Source of the DNA: Lachnospiraceae bacterium UBA4631
GTDB lineage: Bacteria > Bacillota > Clostridia > Lachnospirales > Lachnospiraceae
Reading direction: 5' to 3'
Assembly: GCA_002406015.1 (NCBI GenBank)
Contig: DHMX01000023.1
Coordinates: 238,233-302,232 of the forward strand
Length of the DNA: 64,000 bases
Shown here: positions 32,129-52,922 of the stretch, in pieces
Position numbering within the stretch: position 1 is the stretch's first letter
Layout of the letters: each line of letters begins with the position of its first letter
Notes under the pieces: model-generated
Told to the model about the DNA's origin: nothing
Seen by the model: only the letters and a program-made list of their open reading frames with translations
Database searches by the model: none
Position numbers and translations under genes: made by a program

Positions 32129-33505
32129 TTGAATTTAGGAATAGAAACTGAAACACTGGAATTTAAAAAGTCTACAGGTGAGCTTAAAGAAGCAATGCAT
32201 TCTATTTGTGCGATTTTAAATAAACATCAACATGGAGAATTATATTTTGGAGTAAAACCGGATGGTACGCCAATTGGACAAATTGTAACGGAAGAATCTT
32301 TGCGAGAAGTTAGCCAAAAGATTAAAAATTTTATAGAACCTAAAATCTATCCCGCTATTAATAAGGTAGTTATTGATGGAAAAGAGTGTATTCATGTTAA
32401 ATTTGAGGGAAATCAAGTCCCATATTTTGCATATGGTGTAGCTAGAATACGAGTTGCAGATGAAGATTTGGTGATGTCACCGGAACAGATTACCGATTTG
32501 TTGTTAAGGAGTGGAAAAGAAGGTAATCGTTGGGAAAGTCTGGTTTCGAATAAATCAATTGAAGATGTTGATGAGGAACTATTAAGGAAATATACAACTC
32601 ATGCTCATGAAGTAGGAAGAATTGCAATTTCTTATACTGATAAAAAGACAGTTTTAAACCAATTGGAGTTAGTGGAAGGGGATGCTTTGTTAAATGCCGG
32701 AAAGGCATTGTTTAGCGACGATATTGTACAAGATGTTCAGATGGCAATATTTGCAACAAATGAACGATTGACATTTAATGATATACAACGTCATCATGGA
32801 CCTGTATTGAAACTTGTGGATATAGCAGAAAATTATATTAGGAGTAATATTCATTGGAGAGTAGAATTTACAGGAGAGTTGCAACGCACAGAAATACCAG
32901 AAATTCCGATAGATGCAATTCGAGAGGCTTTGTTAAATTCATTCTGTCATAAGGATTATGCTTCAGGGCAGAGTAACGAAGTGGCAATTTATAAGGACCG
33001 CGTGGAAATCTATAATCCGGGGGCTTTTCCCGAAGGCTATAATCCACAAGATTTTATAGATAAGGCAGAAAGACCAATTCGTAGAAATCCTAGGATTGCA
33101 AGAATTTTATATTATTCCAAAGATATAGAAAGCTTTGGCACAGGATTAAAGCGTATTGCTGATGCGTGTGATACAGCCGGGGTCAGGTATGAATTTAAAA
33201 AATTAAAATCTGGTTTTGTAGTCTGTTTCTATCGAATGCCAGATAGTAGTATCAGTGAAGAAAAAGCAGAAAAAAGTACGGGAAAAGTACGGGAAAAGTA
33301 CGGGAAAAGTACGGGAAATCTGAATGCTTCCCAGAAAAAAATTATTGATTTCTTACAAGAAAATGCTCACATAACAAACAAGGATGTTCAGACATTGTTA
33401 GGAGTAAAAGAATCCAGAGCATTAAAGATTTTGAGGAGCTTAGTGGAAATTGGTATTTTAGAGAAATGTGGTAAGTCAAGGAGCAGTTTTTATGTTTTGA
33501 AGTAA
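32129..33505 (+). CDS. Schlafen/AlbA_2-domain protein with HATPase_c_4-like region and C-terminal winged HTH (putative DNA-binding ATP-binding protein)
   Basis: ETETLEFKKSTGELKEAMHSICAILNKHQHGELYFGVKPDGTPIG (AlbA_2), RNPRIARILYYSKDIESFGTGLKRI (RecG-C/HATPase_c_4-like), and the C-terminal IIDFLQENAHITNKDVQTLLGVKESRALKILRSLVEIGILEK. Confidence 0.75.
   Translation: MNLGIETETLEFKKSTGELKEAMHSICAILNKHQHGELYFGVKPDGTPIGQIVTEESLREVSQKIKNFIEPKIYPAINKVVIDGKECIHVKFEGNQVPYFAYGVARIRVADEDLVMSPEQITDLLLRSGKEGNRWESLVSNKSIEDVDEELLRKYTTHAHEVGRIAISYTDKKTVLNQLELVEGDALLNAGKALFSDDIVQDVQMAIFATNERLTFNDIQRHHGPVLKLVDIAENYIRSNIHWRVEFTGELQRTEIPEIPIDAIREALLNSFCHKDYASGQSNEVAIYKDRVEIYNPGAFPEGYNPQDFIDKAERPIRRNPRIARILYYSKDIESFGTGLKRIADACDTAGVRYEFKKLKSGFVVCFYRMPDSSISEEKAEKSTGKVREKYGKSTGNLNASQKKIIDFLQENAHITNKDVQTLLGVKESRALKILRSLVEIGILEKCGKSRSSFYVLK
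33272..33318 (+). repeat. Tandem 11-nt repeat (GTACGGGAAAA) x4 inside the CDS
   Basis: GTACGGG starts at 33276, 33287, 33298 and 33309. Because 11 is not a multiple of 3, the peptide reads STGK-VREK-YGKS-TGN. Confidence 0.9.
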
Positions 33506-33716
33506 GAATAGTAACTACATGTATTTCATACACCTTCACACAAAACTATGAAAAATACAGGATGAATTTTACAAACCTGCTATATACTGCGGGGCATAAA
33601 ACATAGCACCAGAATATAAATGCTATGTAGAACAGGGAGAACGATATGACGTTACTGGATCAGATATATCAAGGCGATGGGGAACGTGTACGGACAATTA
33701 CATTATAATAGGAATC

Positions 33717-33950
33717 GTGTTGGTGATAGAAGCCATTGTTATATCAAGCTATGTGATACCGAATCCATCGGGAGGATTGGGTATCAACTATACACTTACG
33801 GATAGCGGTTGGACAGTATTGATATGGAAAATCGGTATAGTTATCTTCATTGCTGTAGCCGCGATAGTGATTATGAAACAGCAAAAAATGTTGAAAGAGG
33901 CGATATATGCCAGATTATTTGAATCTGCTACATCGTCTTTTTTTGTGTGA
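33717..33950 (+). CDS. Small hydrophobic hypothetical protein (77 aa)
   Basis: GTG-start ORF with two predicted TM helices. Weak coding evidence. Confidence 0.2.
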   Translation: MLVIEAIVISSYVIPNPSGGLGINYTLTDSGWTVLIWKIGIVIFIAVAAIVIMKQQKMLKEAIYARLFESATSSFFV

Positions 33951-34095
33951 CCTGCAGTGGCAGACAATTGAAGTTTGCAAAAGTATCCTTGCTATTTGTT
34001 GATTACGTTATTCCTGCTATATGGGATAATATATATGCCTGATAAGTTGTATTCCTGCTTTATATTGAAAGGTGAGAATATAAAGGAGGTTTCAT

Positions 34096-34710
34096 ATGAA
34101 GAAATACGGATATGTACGCGTGTCATCGAAAGATCAGAATTTAAATCGACAGTTGGATGCATTATATGAGGTGGGAGTAGAATCAAAAAATGTATATATT
34201 GATAAGCTGTCGGGGAAAGACTTTAACCGACCGAACTATAAGAGACTGGTATCCAGACTTCAGGAAGGTGATATTGTTGTAATCATGAGTATAGACAGAT
34301 TAGGGAGAAACTATGATGAGATTCTGGAACAGTGGAGGCTGTTGACAAAAGAACGACGAGTCAATATAGAGGTAGTTGATATGCCACTATTAAATACGAA
34401 TTATGAGCGGGAGGGATTGACAAGTGTTTTTATTTCCGATTTGGTTTTACAGATATTAGCATATGTTGCGGAAACGGAACGCTCATTTATAAGGCAGAGA
34501 CAGGCGGAAGGAATAGCAGCAGCTAAGGCTAGGGGAGTGAAGTTCGGGGTACAAAGACGGCAAATGCCGGAGGAGTTTGAAAAATATTTTCGACTATGGA
34601 AGGATAAAAAGATTACTGTTCGGAAAGCGGCAGAAAAATTAGGAATTGGTTATTCTACATTTTACAGGCGATGTAGGGAATTGCAAGAAAGTGATGAGAA
34701 AGTGTTGTGA
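34096..34710 (+). CDS. Small serine recombinase (resolvase/invertase family)
   Basis: MKKYGYVRVSSKDQNLNRQLDAL...IVVIMSIDRLGRN... carries the catalytic Ser in the YxRVSxxxQ motif plus a C-terminal HTH (ITVRKAAEKLGIGYSTFYR). RBS AAGGAGG upstream. Confidence 0.9.
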   Translation: MKKYGYVRVSSKDQNLNRQLDALYEVGVESKNVYIDKLSGKDFNRPNYKRLVSRLQEGDIVVIMSIDRLGRNYDEILEQWRLLTKERRVNIEVVDMPLLNTNYEREGLTSVFISDLVLQILAYVAETERSFIRQRQAEGIAAAKARGVKFGVQRRQMPEEFEKYFRLWKDKKITVRKAAEKLGIGYSTFYRRCRELQESDEKVL

Positions 34711-34748
34711 AAAGTAGACAATGTGAAACATCTAATATGTTATGAAAC

Positions 34749-34784
34749 AAGCTCGTAAATCAAATGATTTATAGAGCTTTTTTT
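34749..34784 (+). terminator. Rho-independent terminator after the recombinase gene
   Basis: AAGCTC (34749-34754) / GAGCTT (34774-34779) with inner TAAATCA/TGATTTA pairing, followed by a T7 run. Confidence 0.55.
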
Positions 34785-34934
34785 ATTATATAACATGTGT
34801 TTCGAAAAGTCTACTTTTGGAAAATTACAATTTCAGATAGCTTGGGGTTGTCTGTGAAAGATGGATAAAGGAGGGAAAAGAGAAAAAGGAGTATCCATTG
34901 TAAATCAATAGAGAAATAAGGGAGGAACAAAGAG

Positions 34935-35471
34935 ATGAAAACAGAAATATGGAGTCGCAAGTATGTGGATGATGATTTGATGCGGATAGGTGCAACGAAT
35001 TTTATGAATAACCTATATGAGTTTTTGGGCATATATCAGAAATACTTAATGGATGATGCTGCCGGGAGAGAGTTTGAAAAGTACTATAGGGATTATCGCA
35101 ATATAACAGAATATCATTTCGTTAATAAGGGTGTTCAGTTTGTAAGAGGTCTGCTAAAGAATAAGGAAATCGAGGTTTCAAATAGAAATATTAAAAGGCT
35201 GGGGCGAACCTATAAGGGCTTTCCGGTTGTATTGACCATGTATGCAGATGAAGTGATAACAAGTATTCTGGAATATATAGATGATAATGAGATGTTGAAA
35301 GCGGTATATCTGCATCAAGTGGTTTGGAGTAATAATTCAGAGCAGAACTTGACTTTTCAATATAAGTTGTTAAGAAGGACTGTGCGAGGAAGTGAACCGG
35401 GGGCTCCGTGTGCAAGGTTAATGGATAATATTAATGCTGTAAAATGGGAGGAGAAAAATGTATTTTTATAA
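34935..35471 (+). CDS. Hypothetical protein (178 aa)
   Basis: RBS AGGGAGG upstream. It overlaps the next ORF by 14 nt. No domain recognised. AT-rich. Confidence 0.45.
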   Translation: MKTEIWSRKYVDDDLMRIGATNFMNNLYEFLGIYQKYLMDDAAGREFEKYYRDYRNITEYHFVNKGVQFVRGLLKNKEIEVSNRNIKRLGRTYKGFPVVLTMYADEVITSILEYIDDNEMLKAVYLHQVVWSNNSEQNLTFQYKLLRRTVRGSEPGAPCARLMDNINAVKWEEKNVFL

Positions 35472-36162
35472 GATGTCAAATTCGAATATCTTAGCTGATT
35501 CATGCATTAAGAAGTATTTGAAAAAGGCAAATGACAATATAGAACAAATGAAGGAGAATTTTGCCAATGCGGTATTTAGTGCAATGGCAAGTGTTCTTAT
35601 TGGAATAGAGATGTGGGATCGACTTGATAATTTCAATATAATCTTAAGGGTTCTCATTGTTCTTGTAGCATTACTGGTGTCATATTTTATTATTACAGTG
35701 GCTGTGATAAAACTGACGGCTGTAATTGAGTGGATGTGTAGAATTAAAGGGGAAAAAAAAGACAACGAAACGGCAGATGATATAAAAGAACGATTTAATA
35801 CGGAGATTATGACAGAAGCAGTTATGGGAATCAGCTTGTCCCAGCAAATTATAAATCAGCCGCAAACACCATACAAACAGAATTTGAATCAGATATACAT
35901 ATACCAATGCCTATATTACTTTAATAGAATGATGGATGATACGCAAATAGAAATGAATAGGTGTGATAGAGAATTTTTTATAGAAGAGGTTGGTCAGGGA
36001 AGATTTAGTTCTATGTGCGAGGCGGTGCTAAATCAACTGGGAGAGCTGAAAAAGGCAGTAGAAAAGCAATCGTTTAATAATAAAACAGATATAAATAAAA
36101 TGCTTGATGATATTATTACTGATTTAGAAAGCTGGGAAGATAATGGAAGTAAGAGCAAATGA
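35458..36162 (+). CDS. Hypothetical membrane protein (234 aa, 2 TM helices)
   Basis: Hydrophobic segments AVFSAMASVLIGI and ILRVLIVLVALLVSYFIITVAVI. An ATGA overlap with the next gene suggests translational coupling. Confidence 0.45.
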   Translation: MYFYKMSNSNILADSCIKKYLKKANDNIEQMKENFANAVFSAMASVLIGIEMWDRLDNFNIILRVLIVLVALLVSYFIITVAVIKLTAVIEWMCRIKGEKKDNETADDIKERFNTEIMTEAVMGISLSQQIINQPQTPYKQNLNQIYIYQCLYYFNRMMDDTQIEMNRCDREFFIEEVGQGRFSSMCEAVLNQLGELKKAVEKQSFNNKTDINKMLDDIITDLESWEDNGSKSK

Positions 36163-37130
36163 GTGTACGAAGTGAGAGCATGGATGAGAATAACGAAACA
36201 GTTATTTTGCAACCGTTAAAGAGTGTCGAGAGTTATTCTGCATCTAAAAAACAACAGTATTATACAAATATACATGAAGTGTGTACAAACCGTAAACTTA
36301 AAAGACAGACAACACCTTTGATTGTAAATACTATTTCGAGGATTGTACCTATACTGCATAGGTTTGATTTTGAAATAAGGGGAAGTGAAAACCTACCCAA
36401 AGATGATGTTGCAGTTTTTATTTGCAATCATTCTAATTCCCATGATGGCTTTCTGGTTCAGGAACTCTTTGCACGATTGAAAAGACCGGTTACTTCATTA
36501 GTAGCATGGGATGGGTTAAATATCTTTACGAGATATATTATAAGGCTTACGAATGCCACATTTATAAAAAGGGATGATAAAAAGTCTAAAGAAAGCGGTA
36601 TTTTAGATTTCTGCACGAAGATTTTAGACGGAAAGAATGGCTTTGTATTTGGGGAAGGTACATGGAATCTTCACCCGATATTACCGATGCAAAGGCTTAG
36701 AGCTGGTGCAACCGAGGTTGCCTTAATTACAGAAAAGGTAATCGTTCCAACAATCTTTGAATATGTGGAAGTAACAGGTGAGTGTAAAAAAGAAAACGAA
36801 CTATACAGTAAATGTATAATCGTTTTTGGCGAGCCGGTTAAAGTTAGTGCTTCAGAGAGTATATTTGAACAAACCCATGTTATTCAGCAGAAAATGGAGG
36901 AAATGCGTAAAGCTATATGGCAGGAAATCGGAGTAAACAGGAATTCCATCCAAGACATCAATCAGAAGGTGTATTTGAATCATGTGTATTTGAAAAAGTT
37001 TAAAGCTATAGGTTATACCTTTGATTCTGAATATGAAAGCCGGTATTTGTTTTATAAGGGTGGGAAGAATGAAAATGAGTATTACATAAACGGACAGGGA
37101 GAGTTTGTGCCGGGAAATACGAAGAAGTAA
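36159..37130 (+). CDS. PlsC/LPLAT-family acyltransferase (1-acyl-sn-glycerol-3-phosphate acyltransferase-like)
   Basis: FICNHSNSHDGF (HX4D catalytic motif) and FVFGEGTWN (EGT motif) at the spacing usual for the family. Confidence 0.65.
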   Translation: MSVRSESMDENNETVILQPLKSVESYSASKKQQYYTNIHEVCTNRKLKRQTTPLIVNTISRIVPILHRFDFEIRGSENLPKDDVAVFICNHSNSHDGFLVQELFARLKRPVTSLVAWDGLNIFTRYIIRLTNATFIKRDDKKSKESGILDFCTKILDGKNGFVFGEGTWNLHPILPMQRLRAGATEVALITEKVIVPTIFEYVEVTGECKKENELYSKCIIVFGEPVKVSASESIFEQTHVIQQKMEEMRKAIWQEIGVNRNSIQDINQKVYLNHVYLKKFKAIGYTFDSEYESRYLFYKGGKNENEYYINGQGEFVPGNTKK

Positions 37131-37173
37131 GGTTGTTTCAATATGAAAATTATAAATAAAAGATGAAAGGAAA

Positions 37174-38085
37174 ATGATGATGGGTGTCGAAAATGCAATA
37201 GATTTAATAAAGAATCTTACTGATATATCTTGTCAAGAAATGAAAAAGAATGAACCTACATATGATTTCTTTATTGAAATGGTTAAAGACGGAGATTTGA
37301 GTGAGGATAAATTAACAAAACTGGCGTTAATTGCGAATAAGGAAAAGATATGCAAAGAAATTAAGAATTGTTTAAAAATAGAGAAGAAAAAAAGAGAAAT
37401 ACTATTTTGCAATAATATAAATCTGCCGGAAATACAGAAAGTAGATTCATATTTGGACGATTGGCGTTCATATTTTGATAGATTATGTTCTATAGTGTCG
37501 GACGAGGCTATGCAGGATATTTGGGCAAGAATTTTAGTAAAAGAAACATTACAACCGGGAAGCATAAGTAAGGTGATGCTAAATACATTTTCATTGCTAG
37601 ATAACGCATCAGCAAAAAGTTTTGAAAAACTATGTGCAGTAACATTTAAAATGAATCAGGGAGATGATGAAAGAGAGATACCTTTAATAATATATGATGA
37701 CATATTATGTGAAATAATTCATGAATCGTTGGATAGTCTTTCAGAAGAACAAAAAGAAAAAATGTATGCATATGAGAAATATATACCTACACAAAAGGAA
37801 ATAGAATATTTAGCAGAATTAAATTTAATTAAAACAAGTGAAGATCATATGGAGTGCGATATTTATTCTATTGAAGAGATGAACTTGGTATTTGAAGTAG
37901 GAGATAAAAAAATTGAATATAAAGCACCATATGATTCAAATGAAAATCGGTATTTCGTATGTGTAGGTCAAGTCTTTTTTACTCAAACGGGATTAGCATT
38001 ATACAATTCAATAGCTAAAAATAATATGAAATATGAGTATTTGTATGATGTGTTAAAGATATATATAGAATACAGAAATGAATAA
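37174..38085 (+). CDS. Hypothetical protein (303 aa; faint resemblance to DUF2806-type proteins)
   Basis: Only a weak recollection that the MQDIWARILVKE...S...L..L segment is DUF2806-like. No catalytic motif recognised. Confidence 0.35.
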   Translation: MMMGVENAIDLIKNLTDISCQEMKKNEPTYDFFIEMVKDGDLSEDKLTKLALIANKEKICKEIKNCLKIEKKKREILFCNNINLPEIQKVDSYLDDWRSYFDRLCSIVSDEAMQDIWARILVKETLQPGSISKVMLNTFSLLDNASAKSFEKLCAVTFKMNQGDDEREIPLIIYDDILCEIIHESLDSLSEEQKEKMYAYEKYIPTQKEIEYLAELNLIKTSEDHMECDIYSIEEMNLVFEVGDKKIEYKAPYDSNENRYFVCVGQVFFTQTGLALYNSIAKNNMKYEYLYDVLKIYIEYRNE

Positions 38086-38098
38086 GGAGGAAATGAAA

Positions 38099-38257
38099 AT
38101 GGTTGATGAAAATGATTTAAGAGAGTATGAAGAGTGGGTTAATGAAGCAACTTCTAAATCAGAATTGAAAGAGATATTGCAAGATATAAGAAATGATATT
38201 TTAGATGATGGTGATGATAATGAGGGAGGCAGGGTTAAGACTCTAATGAAAAAATGA
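38099..38257 (+). CDS. Small acidic hypothetical protein (52 aa)
   Basis: ATG 8 nt after AAGGAGG. MVDENDLREYEEWVNEATSKSELKEILQDIRNDILDDGDDNEGGRVKTLMKK. Below the ORF-track cutoff, and has no DSL-type carrier motif. Confidence 0.3.
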   Translation: MVDENDLREYEEWVNEATSKSELKEILQDIRNDILDDGDDNEGGRVKTLMKK

Positions 38258-38283
38258 TCTGAGATACAAGGGAGGACATAACT

Positions 38284-39993
38284 ATGATTTCACAGACAGG
38301 TTATCCATCTGTAGACAAGCCTTGGTTGAAATATTACAGCGAGGAAGCAATCCATACACCGCTTCCGGAAAAAACATTATATGGGTATCTGTATGAAAAT
38401 AATCGGAATAATATGGAATCAGTTGCTTTGAATTATTATGGAAAAAGAATTAGCAATAAAGATTTTTTTGAGCATATAAAAGAGACCGCTGATGCATTTG
38501 CAGCAATAGGAATTAAAAAGGGAGATATGGTTACTATATTATCACTTATAACTCCGGAAACTATTTATTGCATATATGCATTAAATTACATAGGTGCAAT
38601 TGCTAACATGGGATATTTGTCTTTATCTGATGATGAAATTGTTCATATGGTTGAAAAGACTAATTCGAAAATAACAATTGTACTTGATGTTGCAGCAGAA
38701 AAGGTTATGCACGTCCAGAAGAGATTAACATCAGAACTGACGATTATTCTTCCGCTAGAATCGAGTATGCCATGGTTGATGAAGGCTATTGTGAAGTTGA
38801 AGAAAAAGAAATTTCCGAATGACGGAAAACAGGTACTAACATATATTTCATTTGTAAAAAAATATGCAGGGCAGAAACAGGCAGTAGAAGTACAGTGGAA
38901 AGAAGACCAATCGGCAGTTTTGGTTTATACCAGTGGCACAACCGGAGAGCCCAAAGGAGTTGTTCTGACAAATGACAATATTAATGCAGTTGCATTTCAA
39001 TATAAGTATTTAGGATTGAAATTTAACAAAGGGGAAACAATCCTTACATTCATGCCGCCATTTTTGGCAATTGGGTTTAGTTTGAATGTGCATATGCCAT
39101 TATCATTAGGGCTTGAAGAAGTTATAAATCCCAATCCGGATCCTGATGTATTGACAAGGTTTTATAAAAAATATAGACCAAATCATTTCATAGCTGCTCC
39201 AACTAACATTTTGCAAATAATAGAGGCTATGCATGGAAAAACAATGTGTAATTGCATCACATTGGCAGGTGGCGGAGAATCTATGACACCTCAACAGGAA
39301 GAAACGGTAAATAAATATCTTGCGGAACATGGTTCAAATGCAAAATATAGTACGGGTTACGGAATGACAGAATTTGCTGCAACAGTCACAGTAGGACTTA
39401 ACGCCGTATATCGTGAAAATACACTGGGAATTCCATTATGTAAGACAATCGTAAAAGTTGTGGATACGGAAAATGGAAAAGAATTGCCATATGACGAAGT
39501 AGGTGAGTTGTGCTTTCATACGCCAAGTCAGATGAAGGAGTATTATCTTAATCCTAAGGAAACCGCTGAGACGGTTATTCAGCATGAAGATGGCATGAAA
39601 TGGATTAGGACGGGTGATTTAGGCTGGGTTGACAGAGATGGATTTGTCCATTTTAAAGGCCGTATGAAACGTATTTACATGACACAAGGAGAGGATGGAA
39701 CATTATACAAAGTATTTCCTGCAAGAACAGAAAAGGTTCTTATGGAAATCGAAAATGTAAAAAAGTGTGCAGTAACTGTAAGAATGGAAGGAAAGCTTGT
39801 AAAGGAACAGATAGCTTATCTTGTGCTGAATAAAGGGGCAGAAAAAGAAAAGATATTAGAGAAGGTAAAAGCACACTGTAAAAAATCCCTTCCTTCACAT
39901 TCTGTTCCTGCGAAATATGTACTACTGGAAGAAATTCCACTTACCCAAAGTGGGAAGACAGATTATAAGACATTGGAAAGAATGACAAAATAA
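38284..39993 (+). CDS. ANL-superfamily adenylate-forming enzyme (acyl-CoA synthetase / acyl-AMP ligase), paralog 1, intact
   Basis: VLVYTSGTTGEPKGVVLTN (A3 motif), GYGMTE, TGDLGWVDRDGF, and the C-terminal catalytic Lys in QSGKTDYKTL. The N-terminus is MISQTGYPSVDKPWLKYY. Confidence 0.9.
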   Translation: MISQTGYPSVDKPWLKYYSEEAIHTPLPEKTLYGYLYENNRNNMESVALNYYGKRISNKDFFEHIKETADAFAAIGIKKGDMVTILSLITPETIYCIYALNYIGAIANMGYLSLSDDEIVHMVEKTNSKITIVLDVAAEKVMHVQKRLTSELTIILPLESSMPWLMKAIVKLKKKKFPNDGKQVLTYISFVKKYAGQKQAVEVQWKEDQSAVLVYTSGTTGEPKGVVLTNDNINAVAFQYKYLGLKFNKGETILTFMPPFLAIGFSLNVHMPLSLGLEEVINPNPDPDVLTRFYKKYRPNHFIAAPTNILQIIEAMHGKTMCNCITLAGGGESMTPQQEETVNKYLAEHGSNAKYSTGYGMTEFAATVTVGLNAVYRENTLGIPLCKTIVKVVDTENGKELPYDEVGELCFHTPSQMKEYYLNPKETAETVIQHEDGMKWIRTGDLGWVDRDGFVHFKGRMKRIYMTQGEDGTLYKVFPARTEKVLMEIENVKKCAVTVRMEGKLVKEQIAYLVLNKGAEKEKILEKVKAHCKKSLPSHSVPAKYVLLEEIPLTQSGKTDYKTLERMTK

Positions 39994-40018
39994 GATTGAC
40001 AAAGGAGGAGGAAAAAAT

Positions 40019-41774
<1,756 letters not shown>

Positions 41775-41978
41775 AAATACTGAAAAGAAAACAAATGAAA
41801 CTCTGCGACGGAAGACATTGAAACCATGTTGAATGTCTGACCAAGAAAACGAACGAAGGGCGAGAATATGAGGCAGTTGTGAAATCCTTGAGTGGTTTAT
41901 GACTAAAGAAAAATGTCCTGAAAAATTTAAGACAATATTTTTATAAAAAGATAGATTGACAAAGGAGGAGAGAAAACT

Positions 41979-43712
<1,734 letters not shown>

Positions 43713-43713
<1 letters not shown>

Positions 43714-44678
43714 TGCGTGACAATCATATACAAAGAGGTTTATCATATATGGATGTGAAACTTCCGGATGATTATATACCTCCGAGAAAAATCAATAATT
43801 TGTATGGAGATGACTTGCTCTTTTATTTGAAATACAGTCGCATAAATTTCGAAAAAAGAAGCAAAGAAAAGAAAAATACGAATCGGGATCAAAGATGGCA
43901 TCCAGTTATGAGACTTGTATTTAAATTATCGAGAATGCTTTCAGGCATCAAAGTAGTTAAAATCAATGACAAACTTCCTGTGATTCCGCCTGACAGGCAT
44001 GTGATATACACGTTATCACATGTTGGCAAGGATGATCAGGCTGTGTTTAATGAGATAAGAACAAAACATTACTCGGTAGTATCAGGTGACTATGAAAGCC
44101 TGTATAATAACGTGGAGGGTTTATTTACAAAAGCAAATGGGGTACTTTTCTTTGATATGAATTCGAAAGAGGAACGGAGGACGATTGTTAACCGGGTAGC
44201 CGAGCGATTATCTGAGGATGATATATTATGCAGCATGGAGGGGGCATGGAATATATCCCCCAATTGTCTGGTATATGGTATCTTTCCCGGAATGATAAAA
44301 GCGGCATTGATGAGTAATGCAGTTATTATTCCGGTTGGAATCGAGAGATTTAATGCTAAATTATATTCCTTGAATGTTTCCGAGAATTATTTTGATCCCA
44401 TAGAAGAGAGAAAGAAGTTTTCAGAAGAAAAAGAGTTTATGGAATGGAGCAGGGATTATATCAGGCAAGAGCTGGCGAGTCTTAAATATAATACCTATTT
44501 TGATAAAAGGATTATAAAAGAAATAACCTGCCAAAGAAGCGAAATCGGAGATTTTGACGAATATTATACATGGTTTGTAAATGATATTTTAAAGGACTGG
44601 ACGTTTACAGAAGAAGATATTAACCGTAAAAGATACAGAGATCCGTTAGAACCGGAATTGGTATTAGGTAAGAGATAA
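43713..44678 (+). CDS. Second PlsC/LPLAT-like acyltransferase (divergent)
   Basis: YTLSHVGKDDQAVF (HX4D) and CSMEGAWNISPN (EG motif). The start overlaps the paralog 3 stop (TAATG). Confidence 0.55.
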
Positions 44679-45488
44679 TCATAACTCCGAACTATCCGGA
44701 CCGAAGGTTCGCTGAAAGCGTTGGCTTAATACATCCATTTCCATATACGCATTATAAAAGTTCTCAATTAACTGACAGGCAACCGGAACAGCCCCCTGCA
44801 TTCGCCGTTGCAGCTCCTGATTGCTGTCGGCACATCCCGTTCGTGGCTGGTCGGGCATAAGAAGCCCATGCATCTGCTTATAATTTCCGGTTATCCTTAA
44901 TATCAGCAAAAGCAGCTTACGTCTGGCAGGTATAGCAGCCTGTAAGAGCCGGTTGTAGTAAATCATAGACTTTAACGCCCATTCCACCTGCTTTGGCTTT
45001 ACGCGTGGAAAGAAGCGGGCAATTATCGTACAGTCAACCGTCTGCGGAAGAATGTGGGAAGTAAGACAATACCGGATGGGGTCCCGCTCATGCTCCTCCA
45101 GAAGCATACGGTCAAATTCCGTTTCCAGCTCCGTATGTGTCAGGTCACTGTGGCGGATTTTATATTCAATATAACCATGACATTCGCTGTCCAGTGCAAA
45201 ATGACAGATAAAGCCGAACATATAGGCAAGCCCCGCCTCCGGGTCGGACATATCCCGCAGAGCGGCTAAGCCCTTTCGAAAAAAAGTTCTGGCATTCTTG
45301 CCATGTAATTGATACCCCTGCCGATTAACGGGATTCGGAAAAAACGGATGATAATAAAAAAGAATATCGGGACCATGCAGCCCCACATAATACAAATCCA
45401 AATGATTACATAGAATCGTCTGCAATTCGTCAGGAAGTACAGCAAAAACCTCCCGCCCGAAGCTTTTATGTGCATAAGTTGATGGCAT
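44679..45488 (-). CDS. Zinc-dependent phospholipase C-family (Zn_dep_PLPC-like) protein
   Basis: MPSTYAHKSFGREV...GLHGPDILFY...FICHFALDSECHGYI shows His/Asp metal-ligand spacing like the PLC alpha-toxin N-domain family. The start is placed at 45488, after AAAGGAG; the 80-codon upstream extension in the track ORF has no support. Confidence 0.5.
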   Translation of the reverse strand: MPSTYAHKSFGREVFAVLPDELQTILCNHLDLYYVGLHGPDILFYYHPFFPNPVNRQGYQLHGKNARTFFRKGLAALRDMSDPEAGLAYMFGFICHFALDSECHGYIEYKIRHSDLTHTELETEFDRMLLEEHERDPIRYCLTSHILPQTVDCTIIARFFPRVKPKQVEWALKSMIYYNRLLQAAIPARRKLLLLILRITGNYKQMHGLLMPDQPRTGCADSNQELQRRMQGAVPVACQLIENFYNAYMEMDVLSQRFQRTFGPDSSEL

Positions 45489-45680
45489 AGTGTTTACTCC
45501 TTTCATAATAAATACAGAGCCTAGCAATAGTGTATCCATTTTTACAAGAGTGATACTATCACCGCTATGTAAAGAAATGATAAACGATAAGAAAAATCTG
45601 AGAAAAGCCGTATGAGCAGTTGTTGCAAAATACTTCCTGTGGTATGATAGTACCATATGATTTGGAAGGAGTATTGAGAT

Positions 45681-47240
45681 TTGGCAGAAGCATATATTAT
45701 GATAAATGACATTATGGAAGAGCATCATGCCCGGATGCAGAATCTCAAGAAATACTATCCGTTCTTTGTATTAAATGAGACTACCTTTACCCAGTATAAA
45801 GAAGGAAAATATGCATATCTGGATATGGGATATATAACAATGGCAAGTCTGCGGTTCCTGATTCATGAGAACCAGTTCAATGAACAGGCAGTAACCTATG
45901 AACAATACGAAGCCTTTTTGTCAGAGCTGTTACAGCGGGACTTTGACTTGCAGGAGGAGCCGGATGAGGAAGCCGAGCTGTTAGATTACATATTCGATAA
46001 ATTAAAAAATGACGGAAAGCCATTTGAATTTAAGTTCTTTGACCCGGAGGATAAGAAACGAAAGACTGCAAGAGTACGTTTGATTGAAAGCGAGCTGCGG
46101 GATGGAGTGGTAGAGTACCGGATTACTGCGGAAGGAATTGAATTTTATCTGGATACAAAAGAGGTAAAAGAAGAAAGCAATATCAGCGTTCAGCAGTTGC
46201 TTCTGGAAAAAATGATAAACGCTAAGAACTTCAAGGGTGGTATCGAGGTTGTCCGCCGCATTAACAGCGAAGTAAAGAAGCTGGTGCTGCAAAAGGAAAC
46301 CGTAGTAGAGCTGTTAAGCCGGGATGTGTTCCAAGGGGCAAAGGCATGTGAAGAATATATGCATACCGTTGGACGATGGTTTGAAGAAGAACAGAAGCTA
46401 TTTGCAAAAAATAAGGCATTAATCGAGCAGACATTAAGTATGGCAACCTCCGAGACAGCAGGACAAACCGCAACAAGCAGCTTCTACAAATCTTTGGAGG
46501 AGATTCACCAACTGGAAACAGAACTGAAAAAGACTATCTACCAGCATGGAGAGTTAATACAGGAGACAACAGAACTGCAAGGAATTGCCGACCAGATGAT
46601 TCATCAGGCAAAGCTAAAGAAGCTTCGGAATGTCTTTGATTTTCAGGGAATGTTAGCAAAGCTTAAAGAACAGGATGAGCCGGAAAAGCTGCAATACCTG
46701 TTAGCACCGTTTTTTGCACCGAAGATTGAAAAGACCTTTGCCGTAAAAAATATAGATAATCTCTTGAATTACAAAACCGATGCAGGCGAGGTCGGAGAAA
46801 CTGTCGTGCGGGAAACGGCAGATTTGGAATTCCGGTATGAGGACGAACAGGAGGAACAGCGGATTGCACATAACTTTGGCAGGATGTTTTACGAGCTGTT
46901 GGACCAGTTACAGAAAAAGCATACCATTGAATTAAAGGAATTGAGTGCAATTCTGGAGATAAAATACGGAGATACCTTCTTAAGAAACGGAGATTTTTAT
47001 TCATTTCTGGTACACATTGCACAGAAGCAGCAGTATTCGATACAGGGGCTTTATGAGAAGCCGGAGACATTTTTGGAAAATCTGGTGATTGAAGCTTTAA
47101 CAGAATCAGAAAAAGAACGATTTTGGACAATGAAGTTTTCTCTCCGCTTTTTAGAGCAGGAGGAGATACCGATTCAACAGGAAACCGCAGAATTTAACAT
47201 CACCAACATGGTGTTTGAACTAGAAGAAACGAGAGGATAA
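45681..47240 (+). CDS. Unknown 519-aa protein; first gene of the SMC-like triad (positionally MukF/JetA-like, i.e. candidate kleisin)
   Basis: TTG start 9 nt after GGAAGGAG. Helical and charged. No family recognised by eye; the assignment rests on gene order and size only. Confidence 0.4.
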   Translation: MAEAYIMINDIMEEHHARMQNLKKYYPFFVLNETTFTQYKEGKYAYLDMGYITMASLRFLIHENQFNEQAVTYEQYEAFLSELLQRDFDLQEEPDEEAELLDYIFDKLKNDGKPFEFKFFDPEDKKRKTARVRLIESELRDGVVEYRITAEGIEFYLDTKEVKEESNISVQQLLLEKMINAKNFKGGIEVVRRINSEVKKLVLQKETVVELLSRDVFQGAKACEEYMHTVGRWFEEEQKLFAKNKALIEQTLSMATSETAGQTATSSFYKSLEEIHQLETELKKTIYQHGELIQETTELQGIADQMIHQAKLKKLRNVFDFQGMLAKLKEQDEPEKLQYLLAPFFAPKIEKTFAVKNIDNLLNYKTDAGEVGETVVRETADLEFRYEDEQEEQRIAHNFGRMFYELLDQLQKKHTIELKELSAILEIKYGDTFLRNGDFYSFLVHIAQKQQYSIQGLYEKPETFLENLVIEALTESEKERFWTMKFSLRFLEQEEIPIQQETAEFNITNMVFELEETRG

Positions 47241-47245
47241 ATAGT

Positions 47246-47968
47246 ATGGATAGTCGCAATATGGATAAGGCATTAGAGCTATATGCCAAGCTTACAATGG
47301 GAGAAGAGGTTCGACGCTCCCATTCGGAAAATGGCAGTCTGTATGAAGAATACTATCAGAATGCAGAGGTCTATGAGATTCTGAATCAGATTTTGAAAAA
47401 ATTAAATCTGAATATTTATGAATACCATGAGGCTTTGTATCTTTGTGCCGGAGAGGGCAACCGGGTGTTCGGATATACCAACGAGGAGTTGAAGCGGATG
47501 CTGGGGCTTCGTAACAACCGAGAACTTTATATGGCGTATTATATTATGTATCAGATATTGCTGTGCTTTTATCAGGATTCTGCCTCCTATCAATATCGGG
47601 AATATGTCCGCTTAGAAGAAATTATAAAAGAAGTTACGGTGTCACTGGCTACGATAACCGGTGACCTTAGTATCTATGCAATGGAAGATATAGAGGAAAA
47701 CAGCTTCAAGAGCATTGCTCTGCTCTGGGAGGAGCTTCCGACTGTGACAGGAGAGGAACGTGAGCAGCTCCGGGCATCGCGGGCATCGCAAATGGGCTTT
47801 GCCAAGCTGGTCTGTAACTTCCTGATTACACAACGATTGTTTACCGAGGTTCATGAGCGATATTATCCGACAGACCGCCTGAAGGCACTTGCGGAGCAGT
47901 ATTTTGAAGAATATCGGGGACGGATATACGAACTGCTGGAAAGAGGTGAGACAGATGCCGAGCATTAA
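47246..47968 (+). CDS. Unknown 240-aa protein; second gene of the triad (positionally MukE/JetB-like)
   Basis: Starts 5 nt after the previous stop and overlaps the next gene by 14 nt. The assignment rests on gene order and size only. Confidence 0.4.
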   Translation: MDSRNMDKALELYAKLTMGEEVRRSHSENGSLYEEYYQNAEVYEILNQILKKLNLNIYEYHEALYLCAGEGNRVFGYTNEELKRMLGLRNNRELYMAYYIMYQILLCFYQDSASYQYREYVRLEEIIKEVTVSLATITGDLSIYAMEDIEENSFKSIALLWEELPTVTGEEREQLRASRASQMGFAKLVCNFLITQRLFTEVHERYYPTDRLKALAEQYFEEYRGRIYELLERGETDAEH

Positions 47969-50900
47969 TCGAATCAGGGTAAATAACGTAAAATATAATT
48001 TCGGAACCCAGCAATATGATGATTTTACCATGCGGATGTATGGAAGAAATACACTGTATGACTTGGCAAACGGTGGTGGCAAGAGTGTGTTAATGCTGCT
48101 TTTGTTACAGAACATGATACCGAATTGTACCTTGGATGATAAGCAGCCGATTGAAAAGCTGTTTCGTGCAGGCTGCGGTAATACCACGATTCATTCCCTG
48201 ATTGAATGGAAGCTGGATGCACCCGAACAGCATGAGGGCTACCGGTATATGACAACCGGCTTTTGTGCCAGAAAGGCAAAGGACTCACCGGACGAGGAAG
48301 AAGGCGGCAGGGAAATAGCAGCAATTGAGTATTTTAATTACTGCATTTTTTATCGTGACTATAATGCAAATGATATAGTAAACCTTCCGCTGGTAAAGGA
48401 CGGAGAGCGGACAACATTTACAGGCTGGAAAAATTACTTAAAGGAGCTGGGAAGACGGGACTTAAAGCTTGAGGTTCATGTCTTTGAACGAAAGGGCGAG
48501 TATCAGCGGTTCATCAGTCAGTATGGTCTGTATGAAAGCCATTGGGAAATAATCCGCGGCATTAATAAAACAGAGGGTCATGTGCGGACCTATTTTGAAT
48601 CCAACTATAAGACCGCAAGAAAAGTAGTTGAGGATTTGCTGATTGAAGAAATTATTGAAAAGGCATATCTGGTAAAGATTAATCAGAATGACAGTGCCGA
48701 CAATATGGCACATACACTGGTAGAAATTAAGGACAAGCTGGTAGAGCTGGCGAAGAAAAAGCGGGAAATCGCAGACTATGACCGGCAGACGGAATTGCTG
48801 CACGTATTAGAGGCTAGGGTATCCGCATTTTTAGAGCTGTATGAGAAGCAGGAAAAGCAACGTGCCAATATCGCAGATGTCTGCGTGACCGGAGCGACCA
48901 TTGCCCAGAACAGCGAGCAGAAAATGAAGGAGCTGGAGCAGCAGCGGGAGGAACAGCAAAAGCAGGTAGATACCCTACAGCGGAAGCAGGAAGCCTTAAA
49001 GATTAAAAAGGATGCATTGCGTCTGGAGGAATTAAATCAGGAAATAGAACGTCTGGTGAAGCAGATAGAGCAGGAGGAAGCATCGGTTGCTGCCTGTCAG
49101 CAGGAATTGAACCGGAAGGAAAGCGTAAATGAATATCTGGAATATTGCCGGGATAAGGAACAAAAGGAAGAACATGAAGCCATGATAACGGCATCCATGC
49201 AAAAAAACGGCAACCAGTTGGAAGAGCTGCAGGCATTAAGCCGGGAGAAAAAACGCAGGGATGATTTGGCGGTACAGGAATTAAGACAGACCTTACAGGA
49301 GGTTTCTCAGGCACAGGATGAGGCACAAAAGAAGAAGGATACCGCAGAGAATCTGGAACGCGAGGCAGCAATTGCGGCAGCAGTAGCTGCACATGATTGT
49401 GAACAGATAGAACAGCAGTATCAAAAAGACATGGAAGAAATGCAGGAGCTACGCAAGCAGTTGGTAGTAGAATCCTTTCAGGCACCGGAGGTGGTGCTTG
49501 AGGAGCAGGAGGCTGTCTATGCAAAACGGCAGGAAGCCCTTCAGAATCTGGAGGAGGAGCTTACCGGGCTTCAGAATGCATATTATGCAGAGCAGCAGCA
49601 TACCGAACAACTGCAACAGCAGGTGGAAGCAGGTGAACAGGCATATGCCAAGCTTCAGGAGCAGGGACAGCAGTATCGGCAGCAGGCAGACACCTTCCGC
49701 AAGATGTTAGATATTTACGGAGGCGGAACGGAAAATAAATCAACCGAATGGATGACAAATCAGGACATTACCGGACTGATTCAGAATATACATGAACGGT
49801 ATCTTACAAATGTTGCTTTGATTTCTGCCAGAAAAGAGCAGTTAGAGCAGAGCAAGAAGCGAATGAAGCAGCTACAGGAGGGAAGACTGATTGCCCCAAC
49901 CGCAGCGGCAGAGAAGGTAAAATACTATATAGAAAGCCGGCATGGAATGGATGCCGTCTTTGGAATGGAGTATCTGGCAGTCCAACCGATAGAAGTGCGG
50001 CAGCAATTACTTGCATCCCATCCGTTGCTTCCGTATGGATTATTAGTGGAGAATTTTGAAGCATTGGATATGGATTCCAAGCTAAGAAGCTTAAATCTCG
50101 GAGATGAGTTTCTTCCTATATATAATATGTCTATGTTAAAGGCTTGTTCTACCGAGAGTGAAAATGACTGCGTAATGTATCTGCAAAGAGGAAAGCAGGT
50201 ATTTCTGGCAGAGGAGAAGTTAGAGCAGGAGAAGCAGCGGCAGCAGGAGGAATTAGATGAATTGGCAGCCGAGGTACAACGATTAGAAGAAATGAGTAAC
50301 ACCTATCTGGAGGACAGTAATTTTGTTGCCGGGCTGCAGGGAATTGCAATTCTGGATGTAGAGCAGCAGACGCTGGATAGTAAGGAACAATTAAGAACTC
50401 TGCAGGAACAGTTGGAAGAAAGCCGGAAGGAAGCAGCACGCTTGCAACAGAAGCTTCAGGAAGCCAGACAGGAAATCAAAGAGCAGCAGGCTTGGATTTG
50501 CAGCTTCTTAGAGCAACGCGGTATTCTGCGTGCAGTAATTACCTGTAGTATAAGGCTGACAAAAGAGGAAGAACAGCTACGGGCTGCAAAGGCAGAGCAG
50601 GAGCGGGTACAGACCTTACAGGAGCAGTATCGGCAGGAGCTGCACCAATGGAGTGTGAAGCTGACGGACAGCACCAGACACCGTATCAGTCTGCAAGAAG
50701 AATTGGATAGCCGGCTGACGCTCTGGAATCAATATTATAAGGAATACTATACCGAGGAGAAAACCGGTGCGTTTGGATTCGATACCTTGTCCGAAGAAGA
50801 ATTGGATACCCGGTTCAAAGCCGTAAAGGCAGTATTTGAAAAGGATACGGTAGTATTAGAGGATAAAAAGCGGCTGATAGCAACCCTGCAGGCAGCCATG

Positions 50901-52403
50901 GATAAATCCCTGCGAACGATTCGTAAGCGGGGAAGCCGGATAGAGGAGCTGGAGCAGTTAAAGAAGGAGCATCGGCTATATCCGGCAGAGGAGCATGACT
51001 TGGAAGCCCTGAGTACAGAACTGTCAAGACTTGCTTTGGTAGTAGATACCATGAAGGCACATTTAGAGGGTCGCAGACAGAAGGCAAACCGTCTGGAGGG
51101 AAGCATCGAGCAGGCGGAACGAACCTTAGCGGAGAGATTCGGTACATACGAAGAAATAGACATTTCCAAGGAAGAACTGGAACGGGTTATGCAGGAGGGA
51201 GAGCAGAAATTAGCACACCTCAAGCAGTTAAGCCAGACCGCAGAGCGGGAATATCAGCAATATAGCCGGGAATATACGGTTATGCTGGACTTATATAAGG
51301 ACGTAAAGAGGATAGTAGAAACAAATAACATCCGCTTGCAGGATGCAAAGGTATTGTTGACCGGCAAGGAGCAGCTGCGGGAGGTCTTTGAAGCCAGTCT
51401 GCTGACATATGATAAAAGCACCAAGGCATTAGAGCGTGCAAAGAATGAATTACAGAGATATAAGGCACAGACCTCACAGGCATTAACGGAAATGCAGGCA
51501 TATGAATTATCCCATACCATCAGTAATGATGTGGTGGTTCCGGATAATTATGGTGAGGCAAAGCAGCTTCGGGATAGCCTGGATGCCATGATTCATGTGA
51601 TAGCCTTAGAAAAGGAGCGGGTAGAGCAGGGAATTACCGATATGCAGTTTATTAAGGCGAATTTTGAGAAGCAGTGTGTACAGCGTTGTCAGGATGTGAA
51701 AAATGAACTGGAAAAGCTTCCGAAATTATCCCGCATCCTGTTAGACGGAGAGCCGATACAGATGGTAGGACTGACGATTCCGTATGTGAAGGAGGAATAT
51801 ATTTCACAGAGAATGTCAGACTATATAGATGATATTGTGGAGAAGTCCGACCAGTTAAAGAATCCGAATGAACGCATGAAATATATCCGTACACGTCTGG
51901 AATTAAAGCGGTTATTCAGTGTAATCGTTACCGATATGAATAATATTAAGCTGACCTTATATAAACGGGAACGGATGAAGGAGCAGAGCCGGTATCTGCG
52001 TTACGAAGAGGCGGTTGGAAGTACCGGACAATCACAGGGTATTTACATTCAGTTTTTGGTGTCCATTATTAATTATATTTCCGGTATTTATGCACCAAAC
52101 GGCGAAAATGAAAAATTAACGAAGACCATATTTATTGATAATCCGTTTGGAGCTGCGAAGGATGTATATATCTGGGAGCCGATTTTTGCATTGCTGAAGC
52201 TGAATCATGTGCAGCTCATTGTGCCTGCCCGTGGAGCGACTCCTGCAATTACCGCACGTTTTGATGTGAATTATATATTAGGGCAGCAGATGGTAGGAAA
52301 GCGGCAGCAGACCGTAGTGGTAGATTACCGTAGTCAGGTAGAACAGGAAGAGCTGGAATACCGGAATCTGGAATATGAACAGGTGAGCTTTGATTTTATT
52401 TAG
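47955..52403 (+). CDS. SMC/MukB/JetC-like ABC ATPase with very long coiled coil (1482 aa)
   Basis: N-terminal head with P-loop LANGGGKS. Two roughly 350-480-residue Q/E/K/L/R-rich heptad-like arms are separated by a non-coiled hinge-like segment (about 49880-50210). The C-terminal head has STGQSQG (signature-like) and TIFIDNPFGAAKD (Walker B/D-loop-like). Confidence 0.75.
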   Translation: MPSINRIRVNNVKYNFGTQQYDDFTMRMYGRNTLYDLANGGGKSVLMLLLLQNMIPNCTLDDKQPIEKLFRAGCGNTTIHSLIEWKLDAPEQHEGYRYMTTGFCARKAKDSPDEEEGGREIAAIEYFNYCIFYRDYNANDIVNLPLVKDGERTTFTGWKNYLKELGRRDLKLEVHVFERKGEYQRFISQYGLYESHWEIIRGINKTEGHVRTYFESNYKTARKVVEDLLIEEIIEKAYLVKINQNDSADNMAHTLVEIKDKLVELAKKKREIADYDRQTELLHVLEARVSAFLELYEKQEKQRANIADVCVTGATIAQNSEQKMKELEQQREEQQKQVDTLQRKQEALKIKKDALRLEELNQEIERLVKQIEQEEASVAACQQELNRKESVNEYLEYCRDKEQKEEHEAMITASMQKNGNQLEELQALSREKKRRDDLAVQELRQTLQEVSQAQDEAQKKKDTAENLEREAAIAAAVAAHDCEQIEQQYQKDMEEMQELRKQLVVESFQAPEVVLEEQEAVYAKRQEALQNLEEELTGLQNAYYAEQQHTEQLQQQVEAGEQAYAKLQEQGQQYRQQADTFRKMLDIYGGGTENKSTEWMTNQDITGLIQNIHERYLTNVALISARKEQLEQSKKRMKQLQEGRLIAPTAAAEKVKYYIESRHGMDAVFGMEYLAVQPIEVRQQLLASHPLLPYGLLVENFEALDMDSKLRSLNLGDEFLPIYNMSMLKACSTESENDCVMYLQRGKQVFLAEEKLEQEKQRQQEELDELAAEVQRLEEMSNTYLEDSNFVAGLQGIAILDVEQQTLDSKEQLRTLQEQLEESRKEAARLQQKLQEARQEIKEQQAWICSFLEQRGILRAVITCSIRLTKEEEQLRAAKAEQERVQTLQEQYRQELHQWSVKLTDSTRHRISLQEELDSRLTLWNQYYKEYYTEEKTGAFGFDTLSEEELDTRFKAVKAVFEKDTVVLEDKKRLIATLQAAMDKSLRTIRKRGSRIEELEQLKKEHRLYPAEEHDLEALSTELSRLALVVDTMKAHLEGRRQKANRLEGSIEQAERTLAERFGTYEEIDISKEELERVMQEGEQKLAHLKQLSQTAEREYQQYSREYTVMLDLYKDVKRIVETNNIRLQDAKVLLTGKEQLREVFEASLLTYDKSTKALERAKNELQRYKAQTSQALTEMQAYELSHTISNDVVVPDNYGEAKQLRDSLDAMIHVIALEKERVEQGITDMQFIKANFEKQCVQRCQDVKNELEKLPKLSRILLDGEPIQMVGLTIPYVKEEYISQRMSDYIDDIVEKSDQLKNPNERMKYIRTRLELKRLFSVIVTDMNNIKLTLYKRERMKEQSRYLRYEEAVGSTGQSQGIYIQFLVSIINYISGIYAPNGENEKLTKTIFIDNPFGAAKDVYIWEPIFALLKLNHVQLIVPARGATPAITARFDVNYILGQQMVGKRQQTVVVDYRSQVEQEELEYRNLEYEQVSFDFI

Positions 52404-52418
52404 AAGAAGGTGATACTT

Positions 52419-52922
52419 GTGGGAAAGAACAAGGAAAAAGAGAAAGACATTAAAACCAATGCAATGCGGATATTGGACAAAAACAAAATTCCTTATACGG
52501 TACACACCTATGAATGTGAAGAATTTATTGACGGTGTCCATATTGCGGATATGCTGCAGCAACCGTATGAAATCAGCTTTAAGACTCTGGTGGCAGTCGG
52601 AAAAAGCGGAGAATATTATGTGTTTGCCATTCCGGTAGACAAGGAGCTTGACATGAAAAAGGCGGCAAAGGCAGTAGGAGAAAAATCCGTAGAATTAATT
52701 CATGTGAAAGATATACAGTCTGTCACCGGCTATATCCGGGGCGGCTGTACTCCGATTGGAATGAAGAAAAATTATAAGACGGTATTGCATGAGAGCATTG
52801 TTCGGTATGACAGCGTGATTATCAGCGGCGGAAGACTTGGCTCCCAGATTCAGATACAACCGGAGAATCTGATAAAGGTAACGCATGCCAAGGTGGAAGA
52901 TATTCTTATGCAACCGGAATAA
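52419..52922 (+). CDS. ybaK: Cys-tRNA(Pro)/Cys-tRNA(Cys) deacylase YbaK
   Basis: KTNAMRILDKNKIPYTVHTYE parallels the E. coli YbaK N-terminus; GYIRGGCTPIGMKK is the conserved GG-x-SPxG-like loop. GTG 52419 lies 8 nt after AGAAGAAGG. Confidence 0.85.
   Translation: MGKNKEKEKDIKTNAMRILDKNKIPYTVHTYECEEFIDGVHIADMLQQPYEISFKTLVAVGKSGEYYVFAIPVDKELDMKKAAKAVGEKSVELIHVKDIQSVTGYIRGGCTPIGMKKNYKTVLHESIVRYDSVIISGGRLGSQIQIQPENLIKVTHAKVEDILMQPE

Follow-up and report, generated by a model that had tools for sequence, protein, structure and literature searches.

A type III Wadjet-like jetABC locus without a detectable JetD nuclease in Lachnospiraceae

The jetABC genes and their products

We analysed a stretch of 64,000 nucleotides of Lachnospiraceae bacterium UBA4631 (contig DHMX01000023.1, positions 238,233 to 302,232; hereafter the window), in which three consecutive genes of the plus strand encode the subunits of a structural maintenance of chromosomes (SMC) complex. 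The locus is almost certainly a type III Wadjet jetABC without its JetD nuclease partner, and this JetD-less architecture recurred in about 90 related loci. The first gene, jetA (45681..47240), encodes a kleisin subunit of 519 amino acids (aa) from a TTG start, jetB (47246..47968) encodes a KITE subunit of 240 aa with two winged-helix domains, and jetC (47955..52403) encodes an SMC-type ATPase of 1482 aa counted from the ATG. The jetA stop codon (TAA, 47238-47240) and the jetB ATG at 47246 lie 5 nt apart (ATAGT), and jetB and jetC overlap by 14 nt, ATGCCGAGCATTAA. The first-pass annotation, which was made from the nucleotide sequence, had described three coupled genes of 519, 240 and 1482 codons with this 5-nt gap and 14-nt overlap, and both the coordinates and the coupling were borne out.

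The intergenic region upstream of jetA (45489..45680, plus strand) carries a strong ribosome-binding site (RBS), GGAAGGAG at 45665-45672, which lies 8 nt 5' of the jetA TTG, as well as a possible promoter. The TTG start was supported, because residue 2 of JetA (Ala) was invariant in 22 homologues. The possible promoter, read by eye from the sequence alone, is an extended -10 candidate located 5' of jetA at about 45620-45651 (TTGTTG, 17 nt spacer, TGgTATGAT); in a consensus promoter scan, promoter-like sites were no more frequent than in shuffled sequence.

All three proteins belong to known families and are not novel. Protein A matched the PADLOC model JetA3 (PDLC00560) with E = 1.7e-216, its residues 1-516 aligning to positions 1-509 of the 511-position model, protein B matched JetB3 (PDLC00571, E = 1.9e-105) as well as the Pfam family DUF6063 (E = 3.2e-50), and protein C matched JetC3 (PDLC00581, E = 0, 1845 bits, 1-1482 against 1-1473). 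With full-length matches to JetA3 and JetB3 and the assignment of B to DUF6063, the initial impression that A and B were unrecognisable and perhaps novel had to be abandoned. Neither JetA nor JetC matched any Pfam family, no ScpA or ScpB match to JetA or JetB was obtained in Pfam or NCBIfam, and JetC matched the NCBIfam model SMC_prok_B (TIGR02168) weakly, with 22.4 bits against a cutoff of 567.

The N-terminal head of JetC bears the Walker A motif LANGGGKS and is followed by long coiled-coil arms with a central non-coiled segment (GMEYL...HPLLPYGLLV), the hinge lying around residues 645-720, while the C-terminal head carries the signature-like motif GSTGQSQG and, at the Walker-B position, IFIDNPFG. 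These elements had been pointed out at first reading and they were all present. A different kind of coiled-coil ATPase, of the SbcC/Rad50 or Lamassu type, had been named as the case that would overturn the assignment, and nothing pointed to it, the only PADLOC trace of JetC in that direction being LmuB at E = 0.75; no genes for LmuA/LmuC or SbcD/Mre11 partners were found in the window.

When the JetC sequence and a JetA profile were compared with the chains in the Protein Data Bank (PDB), nothing relevant was matched, and no solved structure of a type III Wadjet was found in the PDB copy searched. Because type III proteins are too divergent for sequence matches in the PDB, folds were compared instead, using AlphaFold2 models of JetA and JetB with a mean predicted local distance difference test score of 63 and 75, respectively. 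In Foldseek, the best PDB matches of JetA included the Wadjet-II JetABC of N. vireti (9qe0_E, 1e-5), MukBEF (9gm7_C, 5e-5), the E. coli JetABCD (8q72_E, 4e-4), a chain of the MukBEF entry 7nz2 and MukF(1-287) (1t98_A), the identities of the matched chains having been deduced from chain length for all but 1t98. The top match of JetB was the P. aeruginosa JetABC (8dk1_F, 3.8e-3, probability 0.97), and its top four also contained MukE-MukF (3rpu_G and 3rpu_Y) and Nse1-Nse3-Nse4 (7dg2_A), chain identities again being deduced from length. The comparison of A and B with MukF/JetA and MukE/JetB that had been proposed at the outset thus returned matches, and these, together with the PADLOC assignments, upheld the view of the triad as a Muk/Jet-type module of the type III Wadjet lineage, in which A serves as the kleisin, B as the KITE protein and C as the SMC-type ATPase.

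The type III Wadjet of the B. thuringiensis type (JetABCD) was reportedly described by Doron et al. in 2018. The window locus shares with type III Wadjet the JetA3, JetB3 and JetC3 families, DUF6063, the jetA-jetB-jetC order and translational coupling, as well as the GGGK Walker A, the GS(G/T)GQ signature and the DNPF at Walker B of JetC. It differs in that type III Wadjet has a JetD Toprim/CAP nuclease (JetD_C, PF09983), which is missing here, and in that type III Wadjet occurs sporadically and spreads horizontally, on plasmids or in defence islands, whereas the lineage of the window is chromosomal, placed among housekeeping genes and inherited vertically. The window locus descends from type III Wadjet and would work in a similar way, but, having neither JetD nor a mobile or defence-island setting, it ought not to be classed as a Wadjet defence system.

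Like the window triad, MksBEF of Pseudomonas aeruginosa is a three-subunit kleisin-KITE-SMC system without a Toprim subunit, but it is related to type I Wadjet, whereas the triad is of type III. By sequence, the triad matched neither the Mks/Muk or type I Jet families in Pfam nor any chain in the PDB, so that its likeness to MksBEF and MukBEF is one of fold and architecture and not of sequence membership. MukBEF has the same kleisin-KITE-SMC gene order and similar sizes, and A and B had MukF and MukE among their best structural matches; however, sequence similarity was not detectable, and the Walker B variant and the phylum differ. Smc-ScpAB belongs to the same SMC-kleisin-KITE architectural class, but the low score of JetC (22.4 bits against 567) and the failure of A and B to match ScpA or ScpB set the triad apart from it.

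The search for JetD

In the current picture of Wadjet, JetABC extrudes DNA loops and acts as the sensor, and the nuclease JetD is coupled to it. In seven of seven JetD-containing type III operons examined, from a B. mycoides plasmid (L088), a Pontibacillus plasmid (L089), Clostridium sp. Cult2 (L090) and metagenomic contigs (L091-L093 and L095), the genes were ordered jetD-jetA-jetB(DUF6063)-jetC. Because this order was constant, the nuclease of a type III system is the product of the first gene and is to be expected upstream of jetA, and not in fourth place as had been assumed for Wadjet in the first-pass annotation. In the window, the equivalent position is taken by a divergently transcribed gene for a zinc-dependent phospholipase C (Zn-PLC)-like hydrolase (Zn_dep_PLPC, 44679-45488, minus strand) and a 192-bp spacer.

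JetD was not found in the 64-kb window, in six conspecific contigs, in 80 loci of other species (±10 kb) or in four more divergent relatives. With two JetD3 seeds, tblastn against the window and 86 loci returned no match better than E = 1.8. No JetD model of PADLOC was matched at E <= 0.01 by the 59 other open reading frames (ORFs) of at least 70 aa in the window, a set that left out a YhcG ORF matched by many PDC-S02 models, and the Zn-PLC protein had no PADLOC match. We also built two JetD hidden Markov models (HMMs) from 58 and about 100 JetD homologues and ran them unfiltered on 17,557 segments from six-frame translations of the window and of loci L001-L089. The two positive controls were detected (4e-124 and 2e-91), and no other match was better than E = 0.09. 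In six additional loci with JetD (L090-L095, made up of five complete type III operons and the fragment L094), the HMMs recovered JetD in every case, with E between 1e-61 and 1e-126. No JetD was detected by them in the four divergent relatives (L096-L099). The missing JetD partner that had been noted at first reading was thus confirmed for the window by tblastn, PADLOC and HMM searches, and a JetD adjacent to or fused with the triad, which would have made this an ordinary Wadjet, did not turn up in any relative of the subfamily that we examined.

The possibility that a nuclease domain was fused into JetA, JetB or JetC was ruled out, since the lengths of 519, 240 and 1482 aa equal those of the homologues from JetD-containing operons (498-543, 235-260 and 1481-1705 aa, respectively). 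To the proteins of these operons the window JetA was at most 29% identical and JetB at most 28%. A JetD-domain protein labelled Lachnospiraceae (P0302) was found, and the JetA fragment that comes after it belongs to another subfamily, scoring 11 bits against the JetA HMM of the window clade.

The JetD-containing type III systems lay on plasmids or else beside a recombinase downstream of smpB, toxin-antitoxin genes or an OLD-family nuclease. When JetB and JetC were compared with plasmids by tblastn, only distant JetD-containing type III systems of Bacillus and Pontibacillus were obtained. One Bacillus tropicus plasmid (NZ_CP085400, locus L087) bears a truncated DUF6063 (JetB3) gene of 152 aa at 8830-9288, which adjoins a Fic-family gene and has no annotated JetA, JetC or JetD alongside; this plasmid-borne locus seems to be a degraded type III Wadjet.

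Distribution, inheritance and selective constraint

The exact JetB protein was present on many human-gut metagenome contigs. In six conspecific places (contigs of 225-336 kb), the same order was found as in the window, namely Zn-PLC (minus strand), jetA, jetB, jetC, ybaK, AraC (minus strand) and amt. A GTDB scan with a JetA alignment gave relatives in 281 species genomes, the best 80 of which supplied the cross-species loci described here. Almost all of these 80 were labelled as Lachnospiraceae or as Clostridium-type gut and rumen metagenome-assembled genomes (MAGs), with a few bins named otherwise, and they included Wujia, Coprococcus hominis and Clostridium sp. CAG:632. Complete jetA-jetB-jetC triads with intact frames were found in 64 of the 80 loci. 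In an exhaustive HMMER search only 305 representatives were obtained at E <= 1e-3 among 1.84 billion proteins, and no relatives of the window clade were found in IMG/VR viral contigs, phage records or PLSDB plasmids.

The genes that recurrently flank the triad are fructose-bisphosphate aldolase, radical-SAM, malic enzyme, aldose epimerase, MoxR and GH25 lysozyme, all recognised with Pfam, together with MurT/GatD, ThrRS, UvrA/UvrB, UppP and the CCA-adding enzyme, which were read by eye. YbaK, AraC and Amt followed jetC only in the nearest clade. In related genera, fructose-bisphosphate aldolase was the commonest gene immediately upstream of jetA (12 of 59 loci), and a radical-SAM gene came directly after jetC in 34 of 62 loci, with a gap of 17 nt in the one locus checked (L019). 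The radical-SAM neighbour was considered as a new effector and ruled out, being restricted to one clade and absent from the window. Clustering of all flanking ORFs in the 80 species brought out no candidate effector and no conserved non-housekeeping neighbour, and the conserved fourth gene that had been sought beside orthologous triads did not emerge.

In a neighbour-joining tree of JetA, rooted on the sequences from JetD-containing operons, three synteny groups formed separate clades: fructose-bisphosphate aldolase with AraC/Amt, fructose-bisphosphate aldolase with radical-SAM/malic enzyme, and epimerase/MurT with GH25. This agreement between synteny groups and JetA clades is what would be expected from vertical descent at a stable chromosomal site. 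The four divergent relatives, which came from the HMMER search (JetA identity of 38, 35, 32 and 29%), adjoin fructose-bisphosphate aldolase, DUF218, Nudix and RecA genes. Within the JetD-less lineage, which spans many genera of Lachnospiraceae, JetA identities lie between 100% and about 30%. The observations strongly support an old, vertically inherited chromosomal locus of Lachnospiraceae, which is neither a mobile defence cassette nor a decaying remnant.

The genes are under purifying selection. In the comparison of the window with the six conspecific contigs, the ratio of nonsynonymous to synonymous substitution rates (dN/dS) was 0.048 for jetA and 0.037 for jetC, with dS of about 0.08-0.09; the value of 0 for jetB is an artefact of having retrieved the conspecific loci by exact JetB identity and was not used as evidence. 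The Walker A, signature-like and Walker-B-position motifs of JetC were invariant in 66 orthologues. The sequence DNPFG corresponds to JetC residues 1395-1399 (window 52137-52151), and the Walker-B position reads D-N-P-F, instead of the usual D-E, in the 66 JetD-less proteins as well as in the JetC of all seven JetD-containing type III operons (L088-L093 and L095). Since it also occurs in these seven, the D-N-P-F variant is a hallmark of type III and no sign of decay. The catalytic glutamate of SMC/ABC ATPases is thus replaced throughout type III, although a B. thuringiensis type III system is reported to restrict plasmids.

Possible functions of the complex and the surrounding genes

By homology with JetABC and MukBEF, JetC would dimerise via its hinge, the kleisin JetA would bridge the head and neck of JetC and link two motor units, and dimers of the KITE protein JetB would bind JetA. 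The complex would then load on DNA and extrude loops using ATP, probably with two motor units joined as a dimer, like MukBEF and JetABC. All four subunits, JetD included, were needed for plasmid restriction by the Wadjet systems tested (PMC10586767), and JetABC and JetD of different Wadjet types were not interchangeable (bioRxiv 10.1101/2025.03.10.642339). For these two reasons, the extrusion-then-cleavage of Wadjet should be impossible here, and a nuclease-free SMC motor would be the most likely outcome. The complex probably organises DNA without any nuclease and does not serve to cut plasmids. More specifically, we lean slightly towards a domesticated, JetD-less SMC complex derived from type III, which by analogy with MksBEF would work as a motor without nuclease; an accessory condensin-like complex was also the first reading proposed in the first-pass annotation, and it turned out to be the best supported. 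As to how it arose, there is somewhat less than an even chance that the type III lineage lost its nuclease once, early, and was then domesticated as a chromosomal SMC motor beside Smc-ScpAB or for the control of plasmids without cutting. If the complex is a condensin, the type III lineage would have lost its nuclease independently, and would have done so in Gram-positive anaerobes.

Several points weigh against the condensin-like reading. The search for JetD extended over the 64-kb window and over ±10 kb in the relatives, the latter being mostly MAG contigs and the cross-species loci only the best 80 of the 281 GTDB matches. The JetA model was of moderate confidence, with low TM-scores (about 0.2) to PDB kleisins, and the fold match of JetB reached a best E-value of only 3.8e-3; the low TM-scores of both models are due to the flexible, multi-domain nature of these proteins. 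Asn replaces the catalytic Glu of Walker B in every type III JetC examined, and both type II and type III Wadjet have been described as largely uncharacterised (bioRxiv 10.1101/2025.03.10.642339). Moreover, the family is patchy and not universal in Lachnospiraceae, and the jetA of some species is solitary or lies apart from jetBC, which is odd for an essential condensin. Thus, in three species (L029, L047 and L035) a three-gene ABC transporter operon sits between jetA and jetBC, and in six others (L034, L038, L049, L075, L066 and L083) jetA is intact but the retrieved locus contains neither jetB nor jetC; four of the six form one clade, with DUF1877 after jetA.

A role in defence would not necessarily call for a nuclease, and it could be that JetABC senses small circular DNA by complete loop extrusion and then compacts, silences or mis-segregates plasmids, along the lines proposed for Smc5/6 on viral or episomal DNA. 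Descent from an anti-plasmid lineage, the conserved motor motifs and the purifying selection all suit this idea, as does the description of DNA compaction by Smc5/6 as a restriction mechanism (review PMC10586767). However, restriction by the tested Wadjet systems required JetD (PMC10586767), and the locus has neither the turnover nor the island context that is typical of defence genes, its housekeeping synteny following the gene tree, so that we hold this reading to be rather unlikely and less favoured than the condensin-like one. A conventional Wadjet sensor could also act with an effector encoded elsewhere, either an unlinked JetD or another nuclease recruited in trans, and the limited span searched in each genome and the existence of P0302 leave some room for it. 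It is nevertheless still less likely, given that jetD directly preceded jetA in the seven JetD-containing type III operons, that the JetD of P0302 accompanies a JetA fragment of another subfamily, that JetABC and JetD are not exchanged across Wadjet types (10.1101/2025.03.10.642339), and that no conserved non-housekeeping neighbour was seen in the 80 species.

That the triad is an inactive Wadjet remnant, decaying after the loss of its nuclease, would account for the missing JetD and for the split or solitary jetA of some species, but it is very improbable in view of the intact frames, found in 64 of the 80 loci from other species and in all seven conspecific copies, the dN/dS of about 0.04, the invariant ATPase motifs and the retention of the triad down to 29-38% JetA identity. 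Least credible of all is the replacement of JetD by the Zn-PLC-like hydrolase. This gene does occupy the slot upstream of jetA where canonical type III operons have JetD, and it was kept in all seven conspecific sequences, with a dN/dS of 0.053, but it was detected in none of the 80 loci of other species (tblastn, E <= 1e-5), it lies on the opposite strand and its product had no match in PADLOC, and the upstream slot in related genera most often holds fructose-bisphosphate aldolase. As an effector it was effectively refuted by the lack of co-occurrence outside the species, and what had been taken for a potential partner is a neighbour in this species only.

MukBEF and MksBEF have been proposed, not proven, to be Wadjet systems minus the nuclease. 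The concept of a condensin made of JetABC without JetD already exists, and the function proposed here is inferred. Our literature search, with key subscription papers outside its reach, returned nothing on JetD-less type III systems, on DUF6063 or on Wadjet-like condensins in Lachnospiraceae. Conserved and vertically inherited in bacteria that abound in the human and animal gut, this JetD-less type III lineage offers a natural experiment on an effector-free Wadjet motor and an independent test of the route from defence to condensin. If the condensin-like reading is true, and if MukBEF and MksBEF do derive from Wadjet-like systems, this would be a further independent case of that route, as yet the only one in Gram-positive anaerobes and the only one from type III; if instead the complex controls plasmids, it would be the first bacterial SMC system to do so without cutting. 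There is also a practical side, as defence annotators that work on single genes (JetA3, JetB3, JetC3) will label such loci as Wadjet components. Because these loci are unable to cleave DNA by the known mechanism, the labels could inflate the apparent anti-plasmid defence of gut Lachnospiraceae.

Immediately downstream of jetC lies ybaK (YbaK/tRNA_edit in Pfam, 52404-52922), and both this neighbour and the divergent Zn-PLC gene, 192 bp upstream of jetA, were as first described. The start of ybaK is probably the GTG at 52419, 15 nt past the jetC stop, and its RBS overlaps the end of jetC. A terminator scan showed no enrichment over shuffled sequences and no terminator-like site between jetC and ybaK. 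With the short gap, the overlapping RBS and no such site between them, jetABC and ybaK of this species probably share a transcript.

On the other side, alignment with the conspecific contigs revealed an island of about 13.5 kb (31176-44681) that is present in some strains and missing in others, being found in the window and in L006 but not in L001 or L003. It contains a serine resolvase (34096-34710), a protein with Schlafen/AlbA_2, HATPase_c_4 and helix-turn-helix domains (32129-33505), acyltransferases, DUF2806 and three AMP-binding (acyl-CoA ligase-like) genes. Its boundary coincides with the 3' end of the Zn-PLC gene, so that this gene separates the island from jetA, and the C-terminus of the Zn-PLC protein is altered by the island (269 aa here against 285-286 aa in strains without it). 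Since jetABC was present in strains with and without the island, it is not part of it, and the neighbourhood provides no argument for accessory status; a strain-variable and separate island was thereby ruled out as the carrier of jetABC. The contrary suggestion, that the module abuts a recombinase island and is for that reason accessory, finds no support in view of the intervening Zn-PLC gene, the independence of jetABC from the island and the housekeeping neighbours in about 80 other species.

Two other genes of the window are candidate defence genes. One, at 25459-26787, encodes an AAA_14/DUF4143 ATPase that matched PADLOC PDC-S01 (3e-89) and was present in only some of the conspecific contigs, and the other, at 1287-2363, encodes a YhcG-type PD-(D/E)XK nuclease (DUF1016_N and YhcG_C) that matched PDC-S02 (6e-146).

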